Shown here: one piece after another, positions 3,368 through 26,362 of the stretch
Layout of the letters: the number at the start of each line of letters is the position of its first letter
Numbering within the stretch: position 1 is the stretch's first letter
Made by a program: the position numbers and the translations under genes
The notes under the pieces: generated by a model
Seen by the model: the letters and a program-made list of their open reading frames with translations, nothing else
What the model was told of the DNA's origin: nothing
Database searches by the model: none
Origin: Candidatus Colwellbacteria bacterium
Lineage (GTDB): Bacteria; Patescibacteriota; Minisyncoccia; UBA6257; Colwellbacteraceae
Direction of reading: 5' to 3'
NCBI GenBank assembly: GCA_016176525.1
Contig: JACOWZ010000003.1
Location: forward strand, 63,554 to 127,553
DNA length: 64,000 nucleotides

Positions 3368-4024
3368 ATGAAATTAGATTTAACATCTGACATAAACCGC
3401 GGGTATGAGGCCGGGCTCGGTTATCCCCAAACCGACAAGTTTATGATTGCCGTCCATTGGTGGTCCTTCGGCTTTATAGTGCTATTCGCTATTACAAACT
3501 CCGTTTTAAAAATTGCCTCGTACTACCCATCGCCCTTTTCTTGGAGGGTGATTTCAGCGCCGGAGGCGTGGGGCACCGTTATTATTGGTTTCTTGGCCGC
3601 GCTTTTGCCAACGCTTTTAATAGGAAAATTTAAAAACCATTACTACTGGCGCATTTTGGTAACCTCGACACTCACTGTTTTCGCATATCTCGCGGTTTTC
3701 ATAGCTGGCGGCTCTATAGAGATGCATTTCATTTTCTTCGCCATGATAGCGCTCGTAGCGATTTATGCCGACTGGCGATTGGGCTGGTTTATGCTCGTAC
3801 TTGTCGCCTTGCACCACGGCATATTGAATTATGTGACCCCGACATGGGTGTATTTCTACGGCCGAAATGACTTCTCGGTATTTGCCCACGCCTTTCCTGT
3901 TATAATCGCCGTAATATTCACAACTATAATTTGCAAAACGCACAGAACAACTATTCAACAGATAAAATCGTTAAGGGAAGACTTGCAAGCGATAAATAAG
4001 GATATAAAAGCGGGTAAAAAATAA
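3368..4024 (+). CDS. hypothetical polytopic membrane protein
   Basis: 218 aa with about 5-6 predicted TM helices, 15 nt downstream of the previous gene (likely co-transcribed). Confidence 0.5.
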   Translation: MKLDLTSDINRGYEAGLGYPQTDKFMIAVHWWSFGFIVLFAITNSVLKIASYYPSPFSWRVISAPEAWGTVIIGFLAALLPTLLIGKFKNHYYWRILVTSTLTVFAYLAVFIAGGSIEMHFIFFAMIALVAIYADWRLGWFMLVLVALHHGILNYVTPTWVYFYGRNDFSVFAHAFPVIIAVIFTTIICKTHRTTIQQIKSLREDLQAINKDIKAGKK

Positions 4025-4355: not shown

Positions 4356-6614
4356 TTATTTTGTAGTGCCGCTGAAGTTTACTCTTTGGCTCTCGCCTGC
4401 AGAGTTTTTTGCTGATATCTGATATTGGCAAGTGCCGCTGCAAAGATTTTCGTAAACTCGCGGGTTAGAAGCAAGAATTGTAGCAACCCATTTATAAGAG
4501 CCATCTTTTAATTTATATATTAAGTATTCATCCGGTGCTCCACCAGAAATCGGTGGATCCCACAAAACTCTTATAGAACCTGATGTGCTAGTAGTCTGAA
4601 TATTTGTTGGCGCCCCTGGTACTTGAACGCTAACTTGCGGAGCCAATGTGGTAGCGCTAACACTTACCCGTGGACTTTCGCCAGCGGAATTCTTTGCGAA
4701 TATCTGGTAGTTATAAGTTGTATTGCTAGATAGCCCGGAGTTTGTATAAGTTCTTTGATTTTGTGCAAGAATTGTAGCAACCCATTTATACGAACCACTG
4801 TATAGCTTAAATATCTGGTACTCCGTCGGCACACCTCCAGTTGTAGGAGGATTCCACGTTAAAGTTACAGAACTAGATGTAGAGCTTGTAGACACCCCTG
4901 AAGGCTCACCCGGAATTTGAACAGTCGCAGGCGGTTGCTGAGCTGGAGGCTGTTCGACAGGCGGTTGCTGAGCCGGAGGCTGTTGTGCTGGAGGCTGTTG
5001 CGCAGGCGGCTGTTCGGCAGGCGGTTGCTGAGCCGGAGGCTGTTGTGCGGCAGGCGCTAAAGCAGCAGACACAGTGTTAGAAAACCCGCTCGTAGCCTGC
5101 GAGTTGCGCGCTCTTATTTTGTAATAATATGTAACTCCCCTATCAACCGCAGAATCATTATATGCAGAAGAATTGCCGGGCACCGAAGTGAGGAATATTT
5201 CGCAACCATTACAAATACCACGATATATTTGGAATTCAAGAACTGTTGAACTACCCTGTGAACCCTGCCCCCAAGCAAGAGCAATGCGGTTTTGTTCACC
5301 ACTAGCAGACAAGGACGGCGCGGCAGGAGCCCGAACAATAGGGTCTTGTACTGTATCTTCAAAGAATGTTGCCGCAACTAAATTTGAAAATCCGCTTGTA
5401 GCTTGTGAATTACGCGCTCTTATTTTGTAGTAATAAGTAATACCATCTGAAACATTAGAATCCGTAAAATTCCTTCTACTGCCAGAAACCGTTCTGTAAA
5501 ACGCCTCACACCCGTTGCAAAGGCCGCGGTATATCTGATATTCAATAATTGCAGAACTACCCTGTGAGCCGCGCGACCAGCTTAACTCTATGCCGTCATC
5601 ATCTGTAAAGACAGATAAGTTCGGCGCAGATGGAGCTTGCGCGTCAGCAGTTGAGGGTACAGCAGTTGTTACAGCCACTGTGGAAGCCGCAACTTCGTTC
5701 GATGCAGGCCCAGAGCCAACAGCGTTTGTCGCGCGCACCGTGTAGTAATAAATTACGCCTTGCACAACGTTAAAGTCCGTATATGTGTTTAGGCTGCCAG
5801 CGACTGTTGTAAGCGCGGTTCCAGTGCCAGGACTTGTGCCACGCAAAATAACATAAGAAATTATAGGCGAACTGCCAGCTGATGCAGATGGACTCCAATC
5901 TAATCTAATATTGTTTGAAAAACCGGTTACAGTTAGAAATCTTGGCGCGCTGGGTTGCGAAACAGTTGTAGTAATTTGCGGAGACACAACTGTTGTCGGC
6001 GGAACAGGCGGCGGAGGAATAACTTCCACTACACCCACACCTGGGATTGTCTTCATAATTTCCCCGCTTGGCGTTACGGTTATTATTCTTGAGTTCTCTC
6101 CATCGCCAATAGAAATAACAATATCAGAAGCAGCAATAACGCTGCCGTTGGATCTAAAAACAACAGACTCTGTCCCTCCCTCTACAGGGTTTATAAAAAA
6201 CATTCTATCTGGAAGATTCTGTGTTTTTTCTTCTTGTACAGAGTCGCTTATTGTGCAGGCAGCATCCGGAAAAACTATACCTGATGTTTTAACATAAAAA
6301 TCGCCGCCAACCGGGTTTCTAAAACATAGGCCCCAAAGATTGTTCGCCTCATCTCTAGATTTGGCTTTTATATCCTGCAAATCTTCTACAATAGCATCTA
6401 CAACCTCGTCTAATGTGGCGTCTTGGCCAAAAAAGCCAACTGTGCCAACCCCAAGCCTGCCCGTAAGGCCGGCGACAAGTATGGCTAAGGCAACCAATAC
6501 TGCAATAAAAATAATTGCGCTAATAGCCGAAATACCTGCCCTGTAAGTAGTTTTGTTCATATTCGTCTTTTTATGTAGTGAGCGAAGATTAGCAGAGTTT
6601 GACTGATATGTCAA
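4356..6614 (-). CDS. membrane-anchored surface protein with tandem fibronectin-III-like domains and PAQQP repeats
   Basis: 752 aa. N-terminal signal anchor. Duplicated ~100-aa modules (…ITYYYKIRARNSQATSGFSN… twice; …KWVATILA.N.R.Y…AKNSAGES… twice) typical of FN3-like beta-sandwich repeats. 8x tandem xQPPA linker. Confidence 0.7.
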   Translation of the reverse strand: MTYQSNSANLRSLHKKTNMNKTTYRAGISAISAIIFIAVLVALAILVAGLTGRLGVGTVGFFGQDATLDEVVDAIVEDLQDIKAKSRDEANNLWGLCFRNPVGGDFYVKTSGIVFPDAACTISDSVQEEKTQNLPDRMFFINPVEGGTESVVFRSNGSVIAASDIVISIGDGENSRIITVTPSGEIMKTIPGVGVVEVIPPPPVPPTTVVSPQITTTVSQPSAPRFLTVTGFSNNIRLDWSPSASAGSSPIISYVILRGTSPGTGTALTTVAGSLNTYTDFNVVQGVIYYYTVRATNAVGSGPASNEVAASTVAVTTAVPSTADAQAPSAPNLSVFTDDDGIELSWSRGSQGSSAIIEYQIYRGLCNGCEAFYRTVSGSRRNFTDSNVSDGITYYYKIRARNSQATSGFSNLVAATFFEDTVQDPIVRAPAAPSLSASGEQNRIALAWGQGSQGSSTVLEFQIYRGICNGCEIFLTSVPGNSSAYNDSAVDRGVTYYYKIRARNSQATSGFSNTVSAALAPAAQQPPAQQPPAEQPPAQQPPAQQPPAQQPPVEQPPAQQPPATVQIPGEPSGVSTSSTSSSVTLTWNPPTTGGVPTEYQIFKLYSGSYKWVATILAQNQRTYTNSGLSSNTTYNYQIFAKNSAGESPRVSVSATTLAPQVSVQVPGAPTNIQTTSTSGSIRVLWDPPISGGAPDEYLIYKLKDGSYKWVATILASNPRVYENLCSGTCQYQISAKNSAGESQRVNFSGTTK
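4921..5056 (-). repeat. tandem 15-nt coding repeat (PAQQP x ~8) inside the surface protein gene
   Basis: Direct nucleotide repeats ggcggttgctgagccggaggctgtt… translating to QQPPAQQPPAEQPPAQQPP…. Confidence 0.7.
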
Positions 6615-6645: not shown

Positions 6646-6726
6646 AGACGAGAAGTTAGGTGTAAGTCTTACAGGCTTACGCCTTAAGACGACAGCACCT
6701 GAACAACTAAAAAGGGATGATAAGAA

Positions 6727-8100
6727 ATGGTAGAAGTGGAAGAAACAGGAGATGCAAGCGCAAAGCATGCGACAACGGTAAAGGTTCCGGTTGAAGACTT
6801 TCACCCAGACACGCACAACGTGAAAGTCTTGAAGCGCGACAACGGCATCATCGTAAGGACCAAACCTAAGGGTGATGTTGAAGAGGGCACCGAAGCGGAG
6901 ATCGTTACGGACGAAGACCACACAGAAACCGTACACACGCTTATAACAAAAGATACCTTCGTGCCTATTAAAGGCGAAGTTAGTCCGAAGGGCTCTTCTG
7001 TTGAAAGCAAAAAACATGTCGGTGAAGTTGAGGTAACCCTCACACCCATACCGGAAAAACCGGAATCCGAAACGGAGGAGGCACAAATGCCACCGGAACC
7101 AGAACCTGAAGAAACTAGAGAACCAACCGAGCAAGAACCCGAGCCGGAAACACAGGAACCGGAATTCCCGGTTCTTGATCTTGAAGAGCGGGTGGAAGCC
7201 GAACCAACCCCGGAAGAGCCCGAGGAACCTCCCGCAGAGGCACCACCGGAACCCGAACCGGAGCCTCCAGCGGAGCCCACACAAGCCCCGCCGGAGCCGA
7301 TTCCCGAGCCCGAACCCATTGAGCCACCTACGGAGCCAGCAGAACCCCCTGCTCCGCCGCCGGTGTTTGACATTACCGTCGAACCACCAGTGCCGAGACA
7401 GGAACGAGTGGAACCTACGCAGGCACCGCCAACTCCGGAACCAGCTCCAGTGCCGGAACCAGTTCCAGTACCAGCTGCACCACCGGCAAGGCCTTTCGTG
7501 CCAGCAGTACCGCGACCGCGCCGAGCAACACCAGAGCCGAGGCCAGTTCCAACACCGGAACCCCCTCAAGCGCCGCCTGCATTGGCACCACCAGCACAGG
7601 CACCGCCAGCAACGCAGTCTGCACCAGTGGCTCCACAGACGCCGGCGACTCCAGTACCGATACCTGTACCTCCTGAACAAACTCCGGAGGAGTCGCGACC
7701 TTGGTACAGAAGCAAGGTTGTGATCAAGACCGGCGTAGGTACACTCGGGGTAATTCTACTTCTAATAGTCGGAATACTATTAGGAGTATGGATCTTCGGC
7801 GGCGAACCGCCACAGGCTCCGCAACAGCAACCACCCGCAGCCCAAGATGGAGGGCAAGCCCTACCCATCTCGGGCACCGGCACAGTAACCTTGCCAACAA
7901 CCGGCTGGTCAAACTGGATTGGCGCGAAACCGGACGAGAGAGTGGCATACACTTTCTCAACACCGGTTGAGGCCATCGCCACAGACCAGTATGGAAACCG
8001 CTACTCAACCACAGAAGGAGTGGTTCTAGTAGGTCCGGTTTCTTTCTCCGGCCCAGCAGGCAACATCGTTACTGCATCCTGGGGACCTCCACCCGTCTAA
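6727..8100 (+). CDS. proline/glutamate-rich membrane-anchored protein (low complexity)
   Basis: 457 aa. Long PEPEPEP/PAPxP tracts. Single TM helix (GVGTLGVILLLIVGILLGVWIF) near residue 340. Short C-terminal domain. GC-rich because of Pro codons. Confidence 0.6.
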   Translation: MVEVEETGDASAKHATTVKVPVEDFHPDTHNVKVLKRDNGIIVRTKPKGDVEEGTEAEIVTDEDHTETVHTLITKDTFVPIKGEVSPKGSSVESKKHVGEVEVTLTPIPEKPESETEEAQMPPEPEPEETREPTEQEPEPETQEPEFPVLDLEERVEAEPTPEEPEEPPAEAPPEPEPEPPAEPTQAPPEPIPEPEPIEPPTEPAEPPAPPPVFDITVEPPVPRQERVEPTQAPPTPEPAPVPEPVPVPAAPPARPFVPAVPRPRRATPEPRPVPTPEPPQAPPALAPPAQAPPATQSAPVAPQTPATPVPIPVPPEQTPEESRPWYRSKVVIKTGVGTLGVILLLIVGILLGVWIFGGEPPQAPQQQPPAAQDGGQALPISGTGTVTLPTTGWSNWIGAKPDERVAYTFSTPVEAIATDQYGNRYSTTEGVVLVGPVSFSGPAGNIVTASWGPPPV

Positions 8101-23632: not shown

Positions 23633-24175
23633 TTATTCTGCTCCTGCTTCAATACCTCTGTCTATAATTTTGGAGCCAAGCTCTGTACTTTTTTGTCTTG
23701 CAATTTCTGCACGCGCAGCAACTGCACCCCTTATTTCAGAAACAGCTGCTTTTGCCTCTTCCTCTGCCTCTCCTTGTAGCCTGTCTAAAATACGTTCGTG
23801 GGCCATAAGTGACACAGCAAGGTTTGATGCAATATCCGCGGCCGCAGTTACATTACCCTTCTCTTCAAGCTCGGTGATATGCGCTTCTACACGATCTGCA
23901 TGCGCGGCAAAATTAGAACCTACCTGTGCACGAGCATCAGCGTTCATTCGGTTTTCTATTGTAAGTTGTTCGGCCTCTTCCAAGCGGCGTTCTAAAAGCC
24001 TTGTCGCCCACTTTGCTTTAGATGTTGCCCCAAATGCTAGAGCTCCGCGAACTTGCTCGTTAACGCCCACTTTTATTGGATAGAGAGCGTCTCCCGGCAA
24101 AGAATTCTCTGCGGCAAAGGATACTCCACCCACTGATAACGCAATTAATAATGTAATTATTGATAATAATTTCAT
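23633..24175 (-). CDS. secreted paralog of the anti-sigma periplasmic domain (DUF5667-like)
   Basis: Signal peptide then AENSLPGDALYPIKVGVNEQVRGALAFGA, identical to the extracytoplasmic domain start of the upstream 445-aa protein. The first 98 nt of this region are identical at nucleotide level. Confidence 0.6.
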   Translation of the reverse strand: MKLLSIITLLIALSVGGVSFAAENSLPGDALYPIKVGVNEQVRGALAFGATSKAKWATRLLERRLEEAEQLTIENRMNADARAQVGSNFAAHADRVEAHITELEEKGNVTAAADIASNLAVSLMAHERILDRLQGEAEEEAKAAVSEIRGAVAARAEIARQKSTELGSKIIDRGIEAGAE

Positions 24176-24194
24176 AAACTTATTATAACATAAT

Positions 24195-24219
24195 AAAAAC
24201 CCCGCAGTGCGGGGTTTTT
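24195..24219 (-). terminator. rho-independent (bidirectional-looking) terminator between the two paralogs
   Basis: AAAAA-CCCCGC-AGT-GCGGGG-TTTTT. Confidence 0.5.
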
Positions 24220-24222
24220 ATT

Positions 24223-25560
24223 TTAGAGACTGACCTCTGCTTCAACTTCGACTTCAGCTTCAGCTTCTGCGCTATCTGATTCTGTTTTAGTTTCGTTATT
24301 AGATTCTGCTTTAGCTTGAGATTTTGCTTCGCTGTTAGATTTACCTCTGGTATCGGATTCTGCTTCAATTTCAATTTCTGTTTCGCTTTCAAACTCAGTG
24401 TCGCTTTCAGTCTCAACTTCTGCATCGCCATCAGAATCTACCTCAACCTCGGCCTCCCCTTCTGTTCTAACTTCCGTTTTGATCTTACCGTTATTACTAT
24501 TTATTCTAATCTCAATTATTCCCGGAGGGCCCAAGAAACGGACCCGTGTGTCAATCTTTATAGATGCGTTTATAAGCGCTCTTGCTTCGTTTGCAACTCT
24601 AATCGCTTGGTTTGCGAGGTTAAACGCTTCTGCCTTAGCCTCTGCTTCCAGCTTTGCTTCTGCTTGAACTACCAAGCTTTCTGCAGTCGAGACGCGCGCC
24701 TCTGCGTCAGCTATAGCTTCTACATCTAAGCTATCTTGCTTTCTTTCAAGCTGGGACTTTACAGAAGCTATAACATTTTTTGCAGCATTTATTCCGCCGC
24801 GGGCTTCAACTTCAATTTTTGCCTTAACTTTTACGTCTTCATCAGCACCCTTCTTTACAACATCGGATTCAAGTTTCGTGCGCTTTTCCGCAGCAGTCTT
24901 ACCGCGAGCTTCAACTGAACCCTTTAGAGTGTTTACATGGAATTTAATTGACTCATCAACACTCGCCTGTAATCTTTCTAAGATTTGCTCGTGAGCTCTT
25001 AGTGATGCTTCAAAGCGGCTGGCAATATCAGCAGCGGAGGTAAAGTCATCTTTCTCTTCAAATTCGGCTATGCGAGCCTCCACGCGCTCAGCATGGGCTT
25101 TAAAGTTAGCTTCTATCCTTTCGCGCACATCAGCATCCATGCGCGTTTTTGCAGAAAGTTGTTCGGCCTCTTCAAGCCTGCGTGCTGCAAGCTGTGTGTC
25201 TAACTTTGCCTTTGCTTTAGCGCCAAATGCTAGAGCTCCGCGAACTTGCTCGTTAACGCCCACTTTTATTGGATAGAGAGCGTCTCCCGGCAAAGAATTC
25301 TCTGCGGCAAAGGATACTCCGCCGCTAAGTGATAATGCTATTAATAGTGCAATTATTGGCATTGGTATTATTCTTAAACTTCCTATTAAGCCTTCTAGTG
25401 AAAACTTCTTCGACCTTTCACTTATTAGACGTCTTGTTTCGGGAGCCCTTACATCACCTTGCATAAAGTTAACCAGATTCTCACGAATACGAGATTTACT
25501 CTCTTTAGAGAGTTTGGCTTCCGGCAAATTCTTAAATTTTTCAAAAAAATTCAGGTTCAT
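24223..25560 (-). CDS. putative anti-sigma factor: cytoplasmic N-domain, single TM, DUF5667-like extracytoplasmic domain, acidic tail
   Basis: 445 aa. ~70-aa cytoplasmic segment, TM (IIPMPIIALLIALSL), then the SLPGDALYPIK domain with long coiled regions. C-terminal E/D/S/T-rich tail. Starts 14 nt downstream of the ECF sigma gene. Confidence 0.6.
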   Translation of the reverse strand: MNLNFFEKFKNLPEAKLSKESKSRIRENLVNFMQGDVRAPETRRLISERSKKFSLEGLIGSLRIIPMPIIALLIALSLSGGVSFAAENSLPGDALYPIKVGVNEQVRGALAFGAKAKAKLDTQLAARRLEEAEQLSAKTRMDADVRERIEANFKAHAERVEARIAEFEEKDDFTSAADIASRFEASLRAHEQILERLQASVDESIKFHVNTLKGSVEARGKTAAEKRTKLESDVVKKGADEDVKVKAKIEVEARGGINAAKNVIASVKSQLERKQDSLDVEAIADAEARVSTAESLVVQAEAKLEAEAKAEAFNLANQAIRVANEARALINASIKIDTRVRFLGPPGIIEIRINSNNGKIKTEVRTEGEAEVEVDSDGDAEVETESDTEFESETEIEIEAESDTRGKSNSEAKSQAKAESNNETKTESDSAEAEAEVEVEAEVSL

Positions 25561-25574
25561 TTGTTTGTTTGATT

Positions 25575-26072
25575 CTACATATACTTGCGTAATTTTTTAA
25601 TTGCCCTGTTTAACTTTACGGAAACGTTGTTCGGGCTAATATCTAGAGCCTCTGCAATATCCTTTGGCTCTAGACCGTCTAGATAACGCAGGGTTATAAT
25701 CTCTCTCTCCCATTTATTAAGACGCAGCATCTTGTCCTTTATTTCAGACAAGACTGCTCCCGCTTCTGCCTTCTTGTCTCCCCTATCCGGCAGATTAAAG
25801 CCGACTTCTTCAATTAAGTAATCCAAGCTTTGTTCCTTGCGCTTACGCGAATCGTCAATAATAAGGTTTGTAAGGACCCTGTATAAAAAAGCGCGCATAT
25901 TTTTTACCTCTTTGCCTTCGCTTACATACTGCCAGGCTCGCATAAAAGTCTCTTGGGTAAGCTCCTCGGCGCGCGACTTCTCATATACCCTAAAGTAGCA
26001 ATGCTTATAAAGCGCATCGGCATACAGTTCGTAGGCCTCAAGGAATTCGCTTTTTTTGTCATTACTCAACAT
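25575..26072 (-). CDS. ECF (sigma-24 type) RNA polymerase sigma factor
   Basis: 165 aa with region 2 (ELTQETFMRAWQ) and region 4 HTH (ITLRYLDGLEPKDIAEALDISPNNVSVKLNRAIKKLR). Confidence 0.85.
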   Translation of the reverse strand: MLSNDKKSEFLEAYELYADALYKHCYFRVYEKSRAEELTQETFMRAWQYVSEGKEVKNMRAFLYRVLTNLIIDDSRKRKEQSLDYLIEEVGFNLPDRGDKKAEAGAVLSEIKDKMLRLNKWEREIITLRYLDGLEPKDIAEALDISPNNVSVKLNRAIKKLRKYM

Positions 26073-26106
26073 ATTAGACGTAGAAAGTCAAAGTTTCTTA
26101 CAAAAT

Positions 26107-26128
26107 TGGTGCGCGGGAGAGGATTTGA
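26107..26128 (-). repeat. direct repeat of the tRNA-Leu(GAG) 3' end (decayed tRNA fragment / possible att scar)
   Basis: TGGTGCGCGGGAGAGGATTTGA at 26107-26128 is identical to the 3' end (with CCA) of the intact tRNA-Leu at 26279-26300. Similarity continues ~8 nt with a 1-nt indel. The flanking GC-rich sequence does not fold as a tRNA. Confidence 0.5.
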
Positions 26129-26278: not shown

Positions 26279-26362
26279 TGGTGCGCGGGAGAGGATTTGA
26301 ACCTCCACGCCTTTCGGCGCTACCACCTCAAGGTAGTGCGTCTGCCGTTTCGCCACCCGCGC
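26279..26362 (-). tRNA. tRNA-Leu (anticodon GAG), class II, encoded CCA
   Basis: GCGCGGGTGGCGAAACGGCAGACGCACTACCTTGAGGTGGTAG-CGCCGAAAGGCGT-GGAGGTTCAAATCCTCTCCCGCGCACCA. Anticodon loop TTGAGGT. Confidence 0.85.

Follow-up and report, generated by a model that had tools for sequence, protein, structure and literature searches.

A proposed cognate promoter inside the putative anti-sigma gene of a Patescibacterial DUF5667 module, and probable gene conversion between the sensor and its predicted secreted paralog

Why should two genes that have diverged almost everywhere else share 98 identical nucleotides (nt)? The question is raised by a 64-kb stretch of DNA, here called the window, from a metagenome-assembled genome (MAG) of Candidatus Colwellbacteria (Patescibacteria), an uncultivated groundwater bacterium. 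Three open reading frames (ORFs) follow one another on its minus strand. They encode an extracytoplasmic function (ECF) sigma factor, a membrane protein whose gene begins after a gap of 14 nt from the sigma stop codon, and a small paralog of the outer part of that membrane protein. A first-pass annotation, made from the sequence alone, had ascribed the identical patch in the two downstream genes either to gene conversion or to strong constraint on the nucleotides, for example by an embedded RNA or regulatory element. It had also suggested that the small protein might act as a decoy or co-sensor.

Comparison with related loci points to gene conversion as the origin of the patch, and to a nucleotide-level element at a different place in the gene for the membrane protein. 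The reading that we favor, to which we assign a probability of about 0.6, has five parts. The sigma factor and the membrane protein would form a conserved module; the gene for the membrane protein would carry an internal promoter for the sigma factor; in some relatives the unit driven by this promoter would have escaped as an orphan gene; the small gene would be a stand-alone version of the same product; and the patch would be a conversion tract. Tandem paralogs are well known to undergo gene conversion, and taken alone the patch is ordinary. The interest lies in the family-level regulatory design around it, not in the patch itself.

The features needed for the argument are listed here in window coordinates. 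The three genes and the two copies of the patch lie where the first-pass annotation had placed them, in the same order and on the same strand.

26077-26101, minus strand: P1, an ECF-type promoter motif, GTAAGA-N15-CGTC, followed by TAAT (motif comparison)
25575-26072, minus strand: ECF (group IV) sigma factor, 165 residues (Pfam, TIGR02937; SigW relative)
24223-25560, minus strand: putative anti-sigma factor and sensor, 445 residues (DUF5667, E = 3e-12; downstream of sigma)
25428-25452, minus strand: P2, an internal sigma-type motif, GTAAGG-N15-CGTC, with TAAT next at 25424-25427 (codon bias, covariation)
25412-25418, minus strand: AAAGGTC element downstream of P2, codons E48 R49 S50 (nucleotide-level conservation)
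25360-25362, minus strand: internal start codon Met67 (ATG), conserved, where the membrane helix begins (co-occurrence with P2)
25223-25320, minus strand: proposed gene-conversion tract, copy in the anti-sigma gene (98/98 identical to 24030-24127)
24192-24222, minus strand: hairpin resembling an intrinsic terminator, which separates the small gene from the anti-sigma gene (perfect 15-nt arms; folding)
24182-24190, minus strand: extended -10 promoter TGTTATAAT, 6 nt ahead of the small-gene start codon (layout common to other genes)
23633-24175, minus strand: small DUF5667 paralog, 180 residues (E = 3e-10; 61% identity to the 445-residue protein)
24030-24127, minus strand: small-gene copy of the proposed conversion tract, from codon G17 to codon G49 (98/98 identical to 25223-25320)

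The first of the three proteins is an ECF sigma factor, as had been proposed. It matches Pfam Sigma70_r2 (43.9 bits) and Sigma70_r4_2 (48.5 bits). Regions 2 and 4 are its only sigma regions, and its 165 residues fall within the range of about 160-200 expected of the group. It also scores 89.5 bits against TIGR02937 (cut-off 42.9; E = 2e-25). Among solved structures, SigW is the nearest to it (E = 1e-14). The resemblance of the downstream proteins to DUF5667 (PF18915), which the annotation had noted from the start of the domain, is borne out by profile searches with a Pfam gathering cut-off of 27 bits. The 445-residue protein reaches 47.2 bits over residues 89-201, and the 180-residue protein reaches 40.8 bits over residues 25-118.

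The 445-residue protein is entered in the databases as a hypothetical protein. Its helical cytoplasmic N-terminus (residues 1-63) is followed by a membrane helix (about 64-85); the DUF5667 ectodomain occupies about residues 86-337, and residues 366-445 form a disordered, acidic tail. Hydropathy and charge analysis finds one hydrophobic segment, at 58-85, and 14 Lys and Arg residues within positions 1-63, which corresponds to a single-pass topology with the N-terminus inside. An AlphaFold2 model renders the ectodomain all-helical, with a predicted local distance difference test (pLDDT) score above 90 at about residues 85-330, and places short helices at 19-37, 41-50 and 55-62 of the N-terminus with moderate confidence.

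The last 80 residues of this protein (24223-24465, minus strand) are of low complexity, with 37% Asp plus Glu and an E-x-E-x periodicity, and are encoded by imperfect 33-nt direct repeats. This tail yields spurious NCBIfam matches to MSCRAMM serine-aspartate repeat adhesins.

To place the locus among its relatives, we used a scan of one genome per species, which gave 80 loci, all from Patescibacteria-type MAGs, together with 12 metagenome loci and the two closest relatives. A sigma gene lies directly 5' of the gene for the DUF5667 membrane protein in 70 of the 80 genome loci and in 11 of the 12 metagenome loci. This comparison shows that the pairing of an ECF sigma factor with a single-pass DUF5667 protein, as a module of two genes, is conserved across Patescibacteria. 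The family is very large, at about 6,000 clusters at 50% identity. We refer to the membrane protein as a putative anti-sigma factor on the strength of this gene context (the 70 of 80 loci) and of its topology.

The putative promoter of the module emerged when we aligned the sequences 5' of the sigma genes in the relatives. A core motif, TAAG-N16-CGTC, lies upstream of the sigma gene in 41 of 70 related loci, where its background rate is 0.016 per 210 nt, and its spacing is invariant in 40 of the 41. In 22 of the 41 loci the CGTC is 4-8 nt from the sigma ATG, which implies leaderless, autoregulated transcription. The copy in the window, P1, ends 4 nt ahead of the sigma ATG and is likewise predicted to give a leaderless, autoregulated transcript. 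Comparison of these loci indicates that the module is probably transcribed from a conserved and mostly leaderless promoter of the form GTAAGA-N15-CGTC.

This strict form of the motif occurs 79 times in about 0.9 Mb of the relatives' loci. Nearly all instances sit 5' of one of three things: the sigma gene, a conserved internal Met codon of the anti-sigma gene, or neighboring genes for secreted proteins. About 30 of them lie within the anti-sigma gene, in codons of the cytoplasmic domain and 40-70 nt upstream of the conserved Met. A strict search of the window for GTAAGA-N13-17-CGTC missed the corresponding site, which has the variant hexamer GTAAGG; this site, P2, was located by comparison with the family.

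P2 is read in frame as V-R-x5-R, which in the window corresponds to V37 R38 ... R44 L45 of the anti-sigma gene, and its codons are used in a strikingly restricted way. Among 42 non-redundant family genes that encode V-R-x5-R, 39 spell Val as GTA (background 19%), 39 use AGA or AGG for the first Arg (background 25%), and 39 use CGT for the second (background 17%), with C as the following base in 35. The corresponding binomial probabilities range from 1e-20 to 1e-27. At conserved residues that served as controls, namely the arginines of RRLxE and the valine of KV.xNE, all codons are in use.

Furthermore, P2 follows P1. Within genomes the -35 hexamers of the two sites co-vary (Fisher p = 9e-4), and the encoded residue changes with the variant used at P1: GTAATA gives V-I (loci L075 and L090), GTAATG gives V-M (L076) and GTAAGT gives V-S (L071). 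In the window, P1 and P2 have an identical -10 sequence, CGTCTAAT. P2 is also tied to a start codon. An internal Met is present in 43 of 44 genes with P2 versus 19 of 33 without it (Fisher p = 1e-5), and the sole P2 gene that lacks the Met has an alternative start codon at the same position. In the window, no in-frame start codon follows P2 earlier than Met67, which lies 65 nt past the CGTC, and the predicted product would comprise residues 67-445.

The same unit can be seen outside any anti-sigma gene. Stand-alone DUF5667 proteins that start at the membrane helix and have no cytoplasmic domain make up about 30 of the top 149 cluster representatives (about one fifth), and stand-alone proteins without that domain account for 9 of the 80 genome loci. 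Three sigma-less orphans (L010, L052 and L053) start at the position of the internal Met and carry the motif 47-48 nt before their ATG, in what is now non-coding DNA; the spacer has diverged, and both hexamers are conserved. By this comparison the sigma-less orphans can be recognized as the internal P2 unit set free. Two further proteins of about 180 residues (P0139 and P0135) were considered as complete short orphans and rejected, as their ORFs are open to the contig start and may be cut full-length genes. Taken together, the codon bias, the controls, the covariation, the link to a start codon and the orphans argue that P2 is constrained as DNA and is connected both with P1 and with the internal Met. 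We infer that it acts as a promoter, and that family members probably also produce, in response to the sigma factor, a secreted form of the sensor domain from which the anti-sigma part is missing.

Could GTAAGR-N15-CGTC within the gene instead be a pause or titration site for the sigma holoenzyme, a promoter for downstream genes only, or a by-product of the protein motif V-R-x5-R? The motif is absent or unrecognizable in about 40% of family genes, and no Shine-Dalgarno sequence lies ahead of Met67. A second nucleotide-level element, AAAGGTC, is also found nearby. This element is read as (Q/E)-R-S, and where the residues are Q-R-S the codons are CAA AGG TCR in 12 of 13 genes; in relatives some 27-32 nt separate it from the internal ATG, and the non-coding leaders of orphans L052 and L053 contain it as well. 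These observations would suit a site with another function. In contrast, the bias in codon choice cannot stem from constraint on the protein, and the encoded residue shifts to follow the P1 variant. The association with an internal start codon, and orphans that consist of exactly the motif, about 47 nt and an ATG at the membrane helix, also speak for a promoter of the sensor domain. We regard the alternatives to such a promoter as unlikely.

Copies of the motif also occur beside other genes. In five related loci a strict GTAAGA-N15-CGTC lies 34-47 nt 5' of genes for small signal-peptide proteins that adjoin the sigma module (L022:7202, L040:7715 on the minus strand, L045:7417 on the minus strand, L072:4880 and L078:2961), and these genes are candidate members of the regulon. 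In three others (L068:5944, L074:5860 and L063:2116) a strict copy falls in the interval that separates the two genes of the module, 8-11 nt from the start codon of the anti-sigma gene, which suggests that the full-length anti-sigma gene has a sigma-dependent promoter of its own. The window itself contains two weaker matches, GTAAGT-N15-CGTC and GTAAGA-N16-CGTC, at 6543-6567 (plus strand) and 6647-6672 (minus strand). Both lie in the divergent interval between genes for a 752-residue surface protein with FN3-like repeats (4356-6614, minus strand) and a 457-residue proline-rich membrane protein (6727-8100, plus strand). These two genes may belong to the regulon, with matches that are near chance (0.32 strict matches expected per window).

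The small gene gives a further version of the sensor domain. Its product had been described as a paralog with a signal-peptide-like start, and it is 61% identical to the 445-residue protein over 174 residues; the ectodomains of the two begin alike, with GGVSFAAENSLPGDALYPIKVGVNEQVRGALAFGA common to both. The 180-residue protein comprises a signal peptide (residues 1-21, with predicted cleavage between VSFA and AE) and the first five ectodomain helices, equivalent to anti-sigma residues 68-240. It is predicted from its sequence to be secreted, and it is found as a predicted protein in a public library (P0121).

Transcription of the small gene appears to be separate from that of the module. The terminator-like hairpin that had been proposed at 24195-24219 is a perfect hairpin with 15-nt arms that extends over 24192-24222, with a folding energy of -19.9 kcal/mol (z = -5.1) and a U-rich tail, UUUUUAUUAU. 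A simple terminator scan did not list it because the A/U-extended stem consumes the U tail; folding confirms the hairpin. The layout TGnTATAAT-N6-9-ATG that precedes the small gene (24175, minus strand) recurs at 3368 (plus strand), 10440 (minus strand) and 20016 (minus strand), and leaderless mRNAs from housekeeping promoters seem to be common in the source genome. With its own extended -10 promoter and a terminator upstream, the small gene looks like an independent transcription unit of the housekeeping type, for which a leaderless transcript is predicted.

How old is the duplication? When the patch is excluded, the best match of the small protein is its neighbor, at 51% identity, and the next best match reaches 50%. 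The nonsynonymous distance (dN) between the two paralogs is 0.40, versus 0.47 and 0.51 to the nearest outgroup. Outside the patch, the proportions of nonsynonymous and synonymous differences (pN and pS) are 0.31 and 0.69, giving a dN of about 0.40, a synonymous distance (dS) of about 1.9 and a dN/dS ratio of about 0.21. This test, which had been proposed with the original observation, indicates purifying selection at loci whose synonymous sites are saturated. None of the 94 related loci has a tandem small copy, including the two closest relatives (48% and 42% identity) and the 12 metagenome loci, and no second DUF5667 ORF was found within up to 6 kb on either side in the 80 genome loci. The comparison of copy number thus restricts the tandem copy to the source lineage. 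From its best match, its dN below that of the outgroup and its absence from relatives, the copy is best read as an old, lineage-restricted duplication.

The same data bear on whether the small ORF is a functionless remnant, in decay, of a duplicated anti-sigma gene. Both the cytoplasmic domain and the C-terminal half are missing from it, it has no counterpart in the related loci, and nonsynonymous change has been about 1.3-fold faster in it than in the anti-sigma copy. However, 180 codons have stayed open while dS went to saturation, and the dN/dS ratio is low. The ORF also possesses its own start codon, signal peptide and cleavage site, with an extended -10 promoter in the layout usual for this genome, and stand-alone DUF5667 proteins are common in the family, as counted above. 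Decay is quite improbable on this evidence.

Against this background of divergence the 98-nt patch stands out. The identity of 24030-24127 and 25223-25320 is exact, as had been reported, and flanks at the same offset are just 55-68% identical. The next longest exact run between the paralogs is 18 nt. This run (23963-23980, encoding EEAEQL) was considered as a second conversion tract and rejected; it is not significant in view of how conserved the residues are there. When the 150 differences over 474 aligned sites were shuffled 20,000 times, the longest identical run never exceeded 38 nt, and the analytic chance of a 98-nt identity is about 9e-17.

The patch coincides with the most conserved protein segment of the family, with the consensus GGGVSFAAENSLPGDALYPVKVxVNEEVR. 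It spans the end of the membrane helix, the signal-peptidase-like site between VSFA and AE, and the juxtamembrane motif NSLPGDALYPIKVGVNEQVRGALAF. We also calculated the chance that 32 codons would be identical with their amino acids taken as constrained. Outside the patch, the paralogs use a common codon for 35 of 75 identical residues, and third positions are 42% identical; at this rate the probability is about 3e-11. With column-specific rates from 78 orthologs it is about 1e-15. On these statistical grounds the patch is most probably a recent interlocus gene-conversion tract. Presumably the slow-evolving segment retained enough identity for recombination after its flanks had diverged.

A more mundane source of identity would be an error of assembly or polishing. 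The source is a MAG, and the public collections searched yielded no further assembly of its species: a metagenome scan with the small protein returned relatives of at most 51% identity, and exact-sequence look-ups of the 180- and 445-residue proteins gave no contig on record. Each copy of the patch is nevertheless set in unique, in-frame and diverged flanks on both sides, and both ORFs are intact. Reads that differ by about 30% would not mis-map in polishing, and a collapsed repeat removes a copy and would not create an internal identical tract. An artefact is very improbable for these reasons.

The other explanation originally offered, that selection on the nucleotides themselves preserves the patch, makes a prediction about orthologs. 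At the 33 codon positions of the patch, the 78 orthologs use the codon found in the window for only 633 of 1,629 identical residues (39%), and the dS values of orthologs in this segment range from 0.9 up to saturation. Compared with shuffled sequences, the predicted RNA fold has a z-score of -0.31 in the sense and +1.72 in the antisense direction, which is no structure signal; neither copy matches Rfam, whose sub-threshold matches fall on the terminator hairpin only. Within the window, neither the patch nor the domain occurs a third time. Although the patch overlies the most conserved protein segment, and although the family has a nucleotide element embedded in coding sequence at P2, these results leave an RNA, a regulatory site or a recombination signal as a scarcely credible cause of the identity. 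Of the two proposed origins, then, gene conversion stands, favored by an identical tract between saturated flanks, and constraint falls with the synonymous variation among orthologs. A regulatory element embedded in coding sequence does appear to exist in the anti-sigma gene, judging from its codons, but it is P2 (25428-25452), outside the patch.

These elements can be combined in a model. The 60-residue cytoplasmic N-terminus of the membrane protein would hold the sigma factor, and the helical DUF5667 ectodomain would sense a signal at the envelope. Proteolysis would then free the sigma factor, possibly by a cut outside the membrane helix at a site of the form [S/T/A]-x-[A/G] followed by A-E, as in RsiV. 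The columns of this site are nearly invariant in the 78 orthologs: position -3 is Ser, Thr or Ala in 78, position -1 is Ala, Gly or Ser in 75, and position +1 is Ala in 76. A family-wide site of this kind after a Gly-rich helix end fits signal peptidase I, as would be expected if the short form is exported; the need to process that isoform may be the sole reason why the site persists. Once free, the sigma factor would transcribe from P1 and also from P2. The latter, about 50-65 nt upstream of the conserved internal Met, would give an mRNA for a protein without the anti-sigma part. This product, a signal peptide plus the ectodomain, might serve as a secreted signal sink, a feedback element or an effector. 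The small gene would provide a similar product constitutively and independently of the sigma factor, restricted to the N-terminal half of the ectodomain.

The notion of a decoy or co-sensor gains plausibility because an internal sigma-type promoter has been found. The identity of the patch means that the predicted mature N-termini of the two proteins are identical. Specifically, conversion would have made the small protein match the sensor at the end of its signal peptide, at the cleavage site and in the juxtamembrane motif, which renders a role as decoy or competitor plausible. An extended version of the idea would have one gene make two proteins of opposite logic. The freed sigma factor would switch the cell to the secreted ectodomain as an output or feedback sink, and orphans and the small gene would be escapes from this arrangement. 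Gene conversion would keep the cleavage site and juxtamembrane segment of the small gene equal to those of the sensor, so that the two compete for the same protease or ligand, with the small protein as a hard-wired decoy. We offer this version tentatively, as a possibility with somewhat less than even odds.

Several observations weigh against the model as a whole. Besides the family genes that lack P2 and the missing Shine-Dalgarno sequence, the leader from P2 to Met67 in the window, at 65 nt, is longer than the family mode of 47-53 nt, and its hexamer, GTAAGG, is the less common one. The N-terminus of the membrane protein matches no known anti-sigma domain in Pfam, NCBIfam or a profile search of solved structures. 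For the ectodomain model, a Foldseek search of the PDB found no significant structural relative (best E = 0.3, template modelling score below 0.25), and a profile search against PDB sequences returned weak helical-repeat noise only. The small gene has no GTAAGA-N15-CGTC motif upstream, and is connected with the sigma circuit by homology and position. To these can be added the lack of a conspecific second assembly in the collections searched that could confirm the patch.

The sequence upstream of P1 has a peculiarity of its own. The last 22 nt of a tRNA-Leu(gag) gene (26279-26362) are repeated exactly 172 nt downstream (26107-26128 is identical to 26279-26300, minus strand), and the downstream repeat stops 5 nt before P1. 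The 150 nt between the two repeats are partly GC-rich and have no tRNA or Rfam match. In relatives an intact tRNA gene of another identity (Pro, Ala or Ser) directly adjoins P1. The repeat could be an integration scar or an att-like repeat. That the module is a tRNA-flanked mobile island was considered and rejected, as there is no third copy of the 22-nt repeat and no anomaly of composition.

What does the comparison contribute? Patescibacteria have small genomes and few regulators, and the DUF5667 module, which has escaped cataloging, looks like a major envelope-signaling module of the group. The comparison adds a defined promoter motif for this group of sigma factors, with neighboring secreted-protein genes as candidate regulon members. 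It also adds a putative sigma-cognate promoter that is embedded in anti-sigma coding sequence and is strong enough to dictate encoded amino acids. If the internal promoter is real, it represents a compact form of feedback, with the sensor domain made anew but freed of the inhibitory domain, and it would explain why stand-alone secreted DUF5667 proteins are common. A full-text literature search for DUF5667 or PF18915 found no paper that mentions the domain, and a search for ECF sigma factors in Parcubacteria or Patescibacteria returned nothing relevant. Neither did we find a precedent in the literature for a sigma-cognate promoter inside anti-sigma coding sequence or for a paralogous stand-alone ectodomain.

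Among characterized systems, the closest in layout is SigW/RsiW of Bacillus subtilis. Both have a two-domain sigma factor (regions 2 and 4), a downstream single-pass protein with its N-terminus inside, and an autoregulatory promoter, predicted in the window, with a CGTC-type -10 element. ECF promoters of the SigW kind have an AAC-type -35 motif, whereas the -35 element in the window is GTAAGA. Unlike RsiW, the window protein has no recognizable anti-sigma domain, be it ZAS, RskA or another, and its ectodomain is an all-helical DUF5667 domain with no solved relative. The mRNA, moreover, is predicted to be leaderless.

SigV/RsiV offers a parallel for the outer part of the protein, in that the window protein has a conserved sequence motif of the signal-peptidase type where its membrane helix ends on the outside, and that its sensor ectodomain could be a stoichiometric signal sink. 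In RsiV, site 1 is cut by signal peptidase (PMC4183432, PMC6066255), and the ectodomain also sequesters the inducer, lysozyme (PMC5014341). The window protein is unlike RsiV in that cleavage is known here as a motif only and in that no relation of sequence or fold joins the two: it matches no RsiV family in Pfam or NCBIfam and none of the solved RsiV sequences, and its model is all-helical. We know of no report of an internal promoter or of a stand-alone ectodomain paralog for RsiV, and the literature search returned none.

RseB/MucB, encoded next to RseA/MucA, is comparable to the small protein as an exported protein that is encoded right after an anti-sigma gene and could modulate the ectodomain. 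In contrast to the small protein, RseB is not a paralog of RseA and belongs to the same operon. The small protein, which has no match to Pfam MucB_RseB, is a paralog of the sensor, and its gene forms a separate unit behind a terminator and its own promoter.

Finally, gene conversion between bacterial paralogs is a known process, of which tufA/tufB is an example (PMC5485169). As in that pair, a tract appears to have been homogenized non-reciprocally between paralogs on one chromosome. Here, in contrast, the homogenized sequence is only a 98-nt island in otherwise saturated paralogs, and it lies on their slowest-evolving segment.

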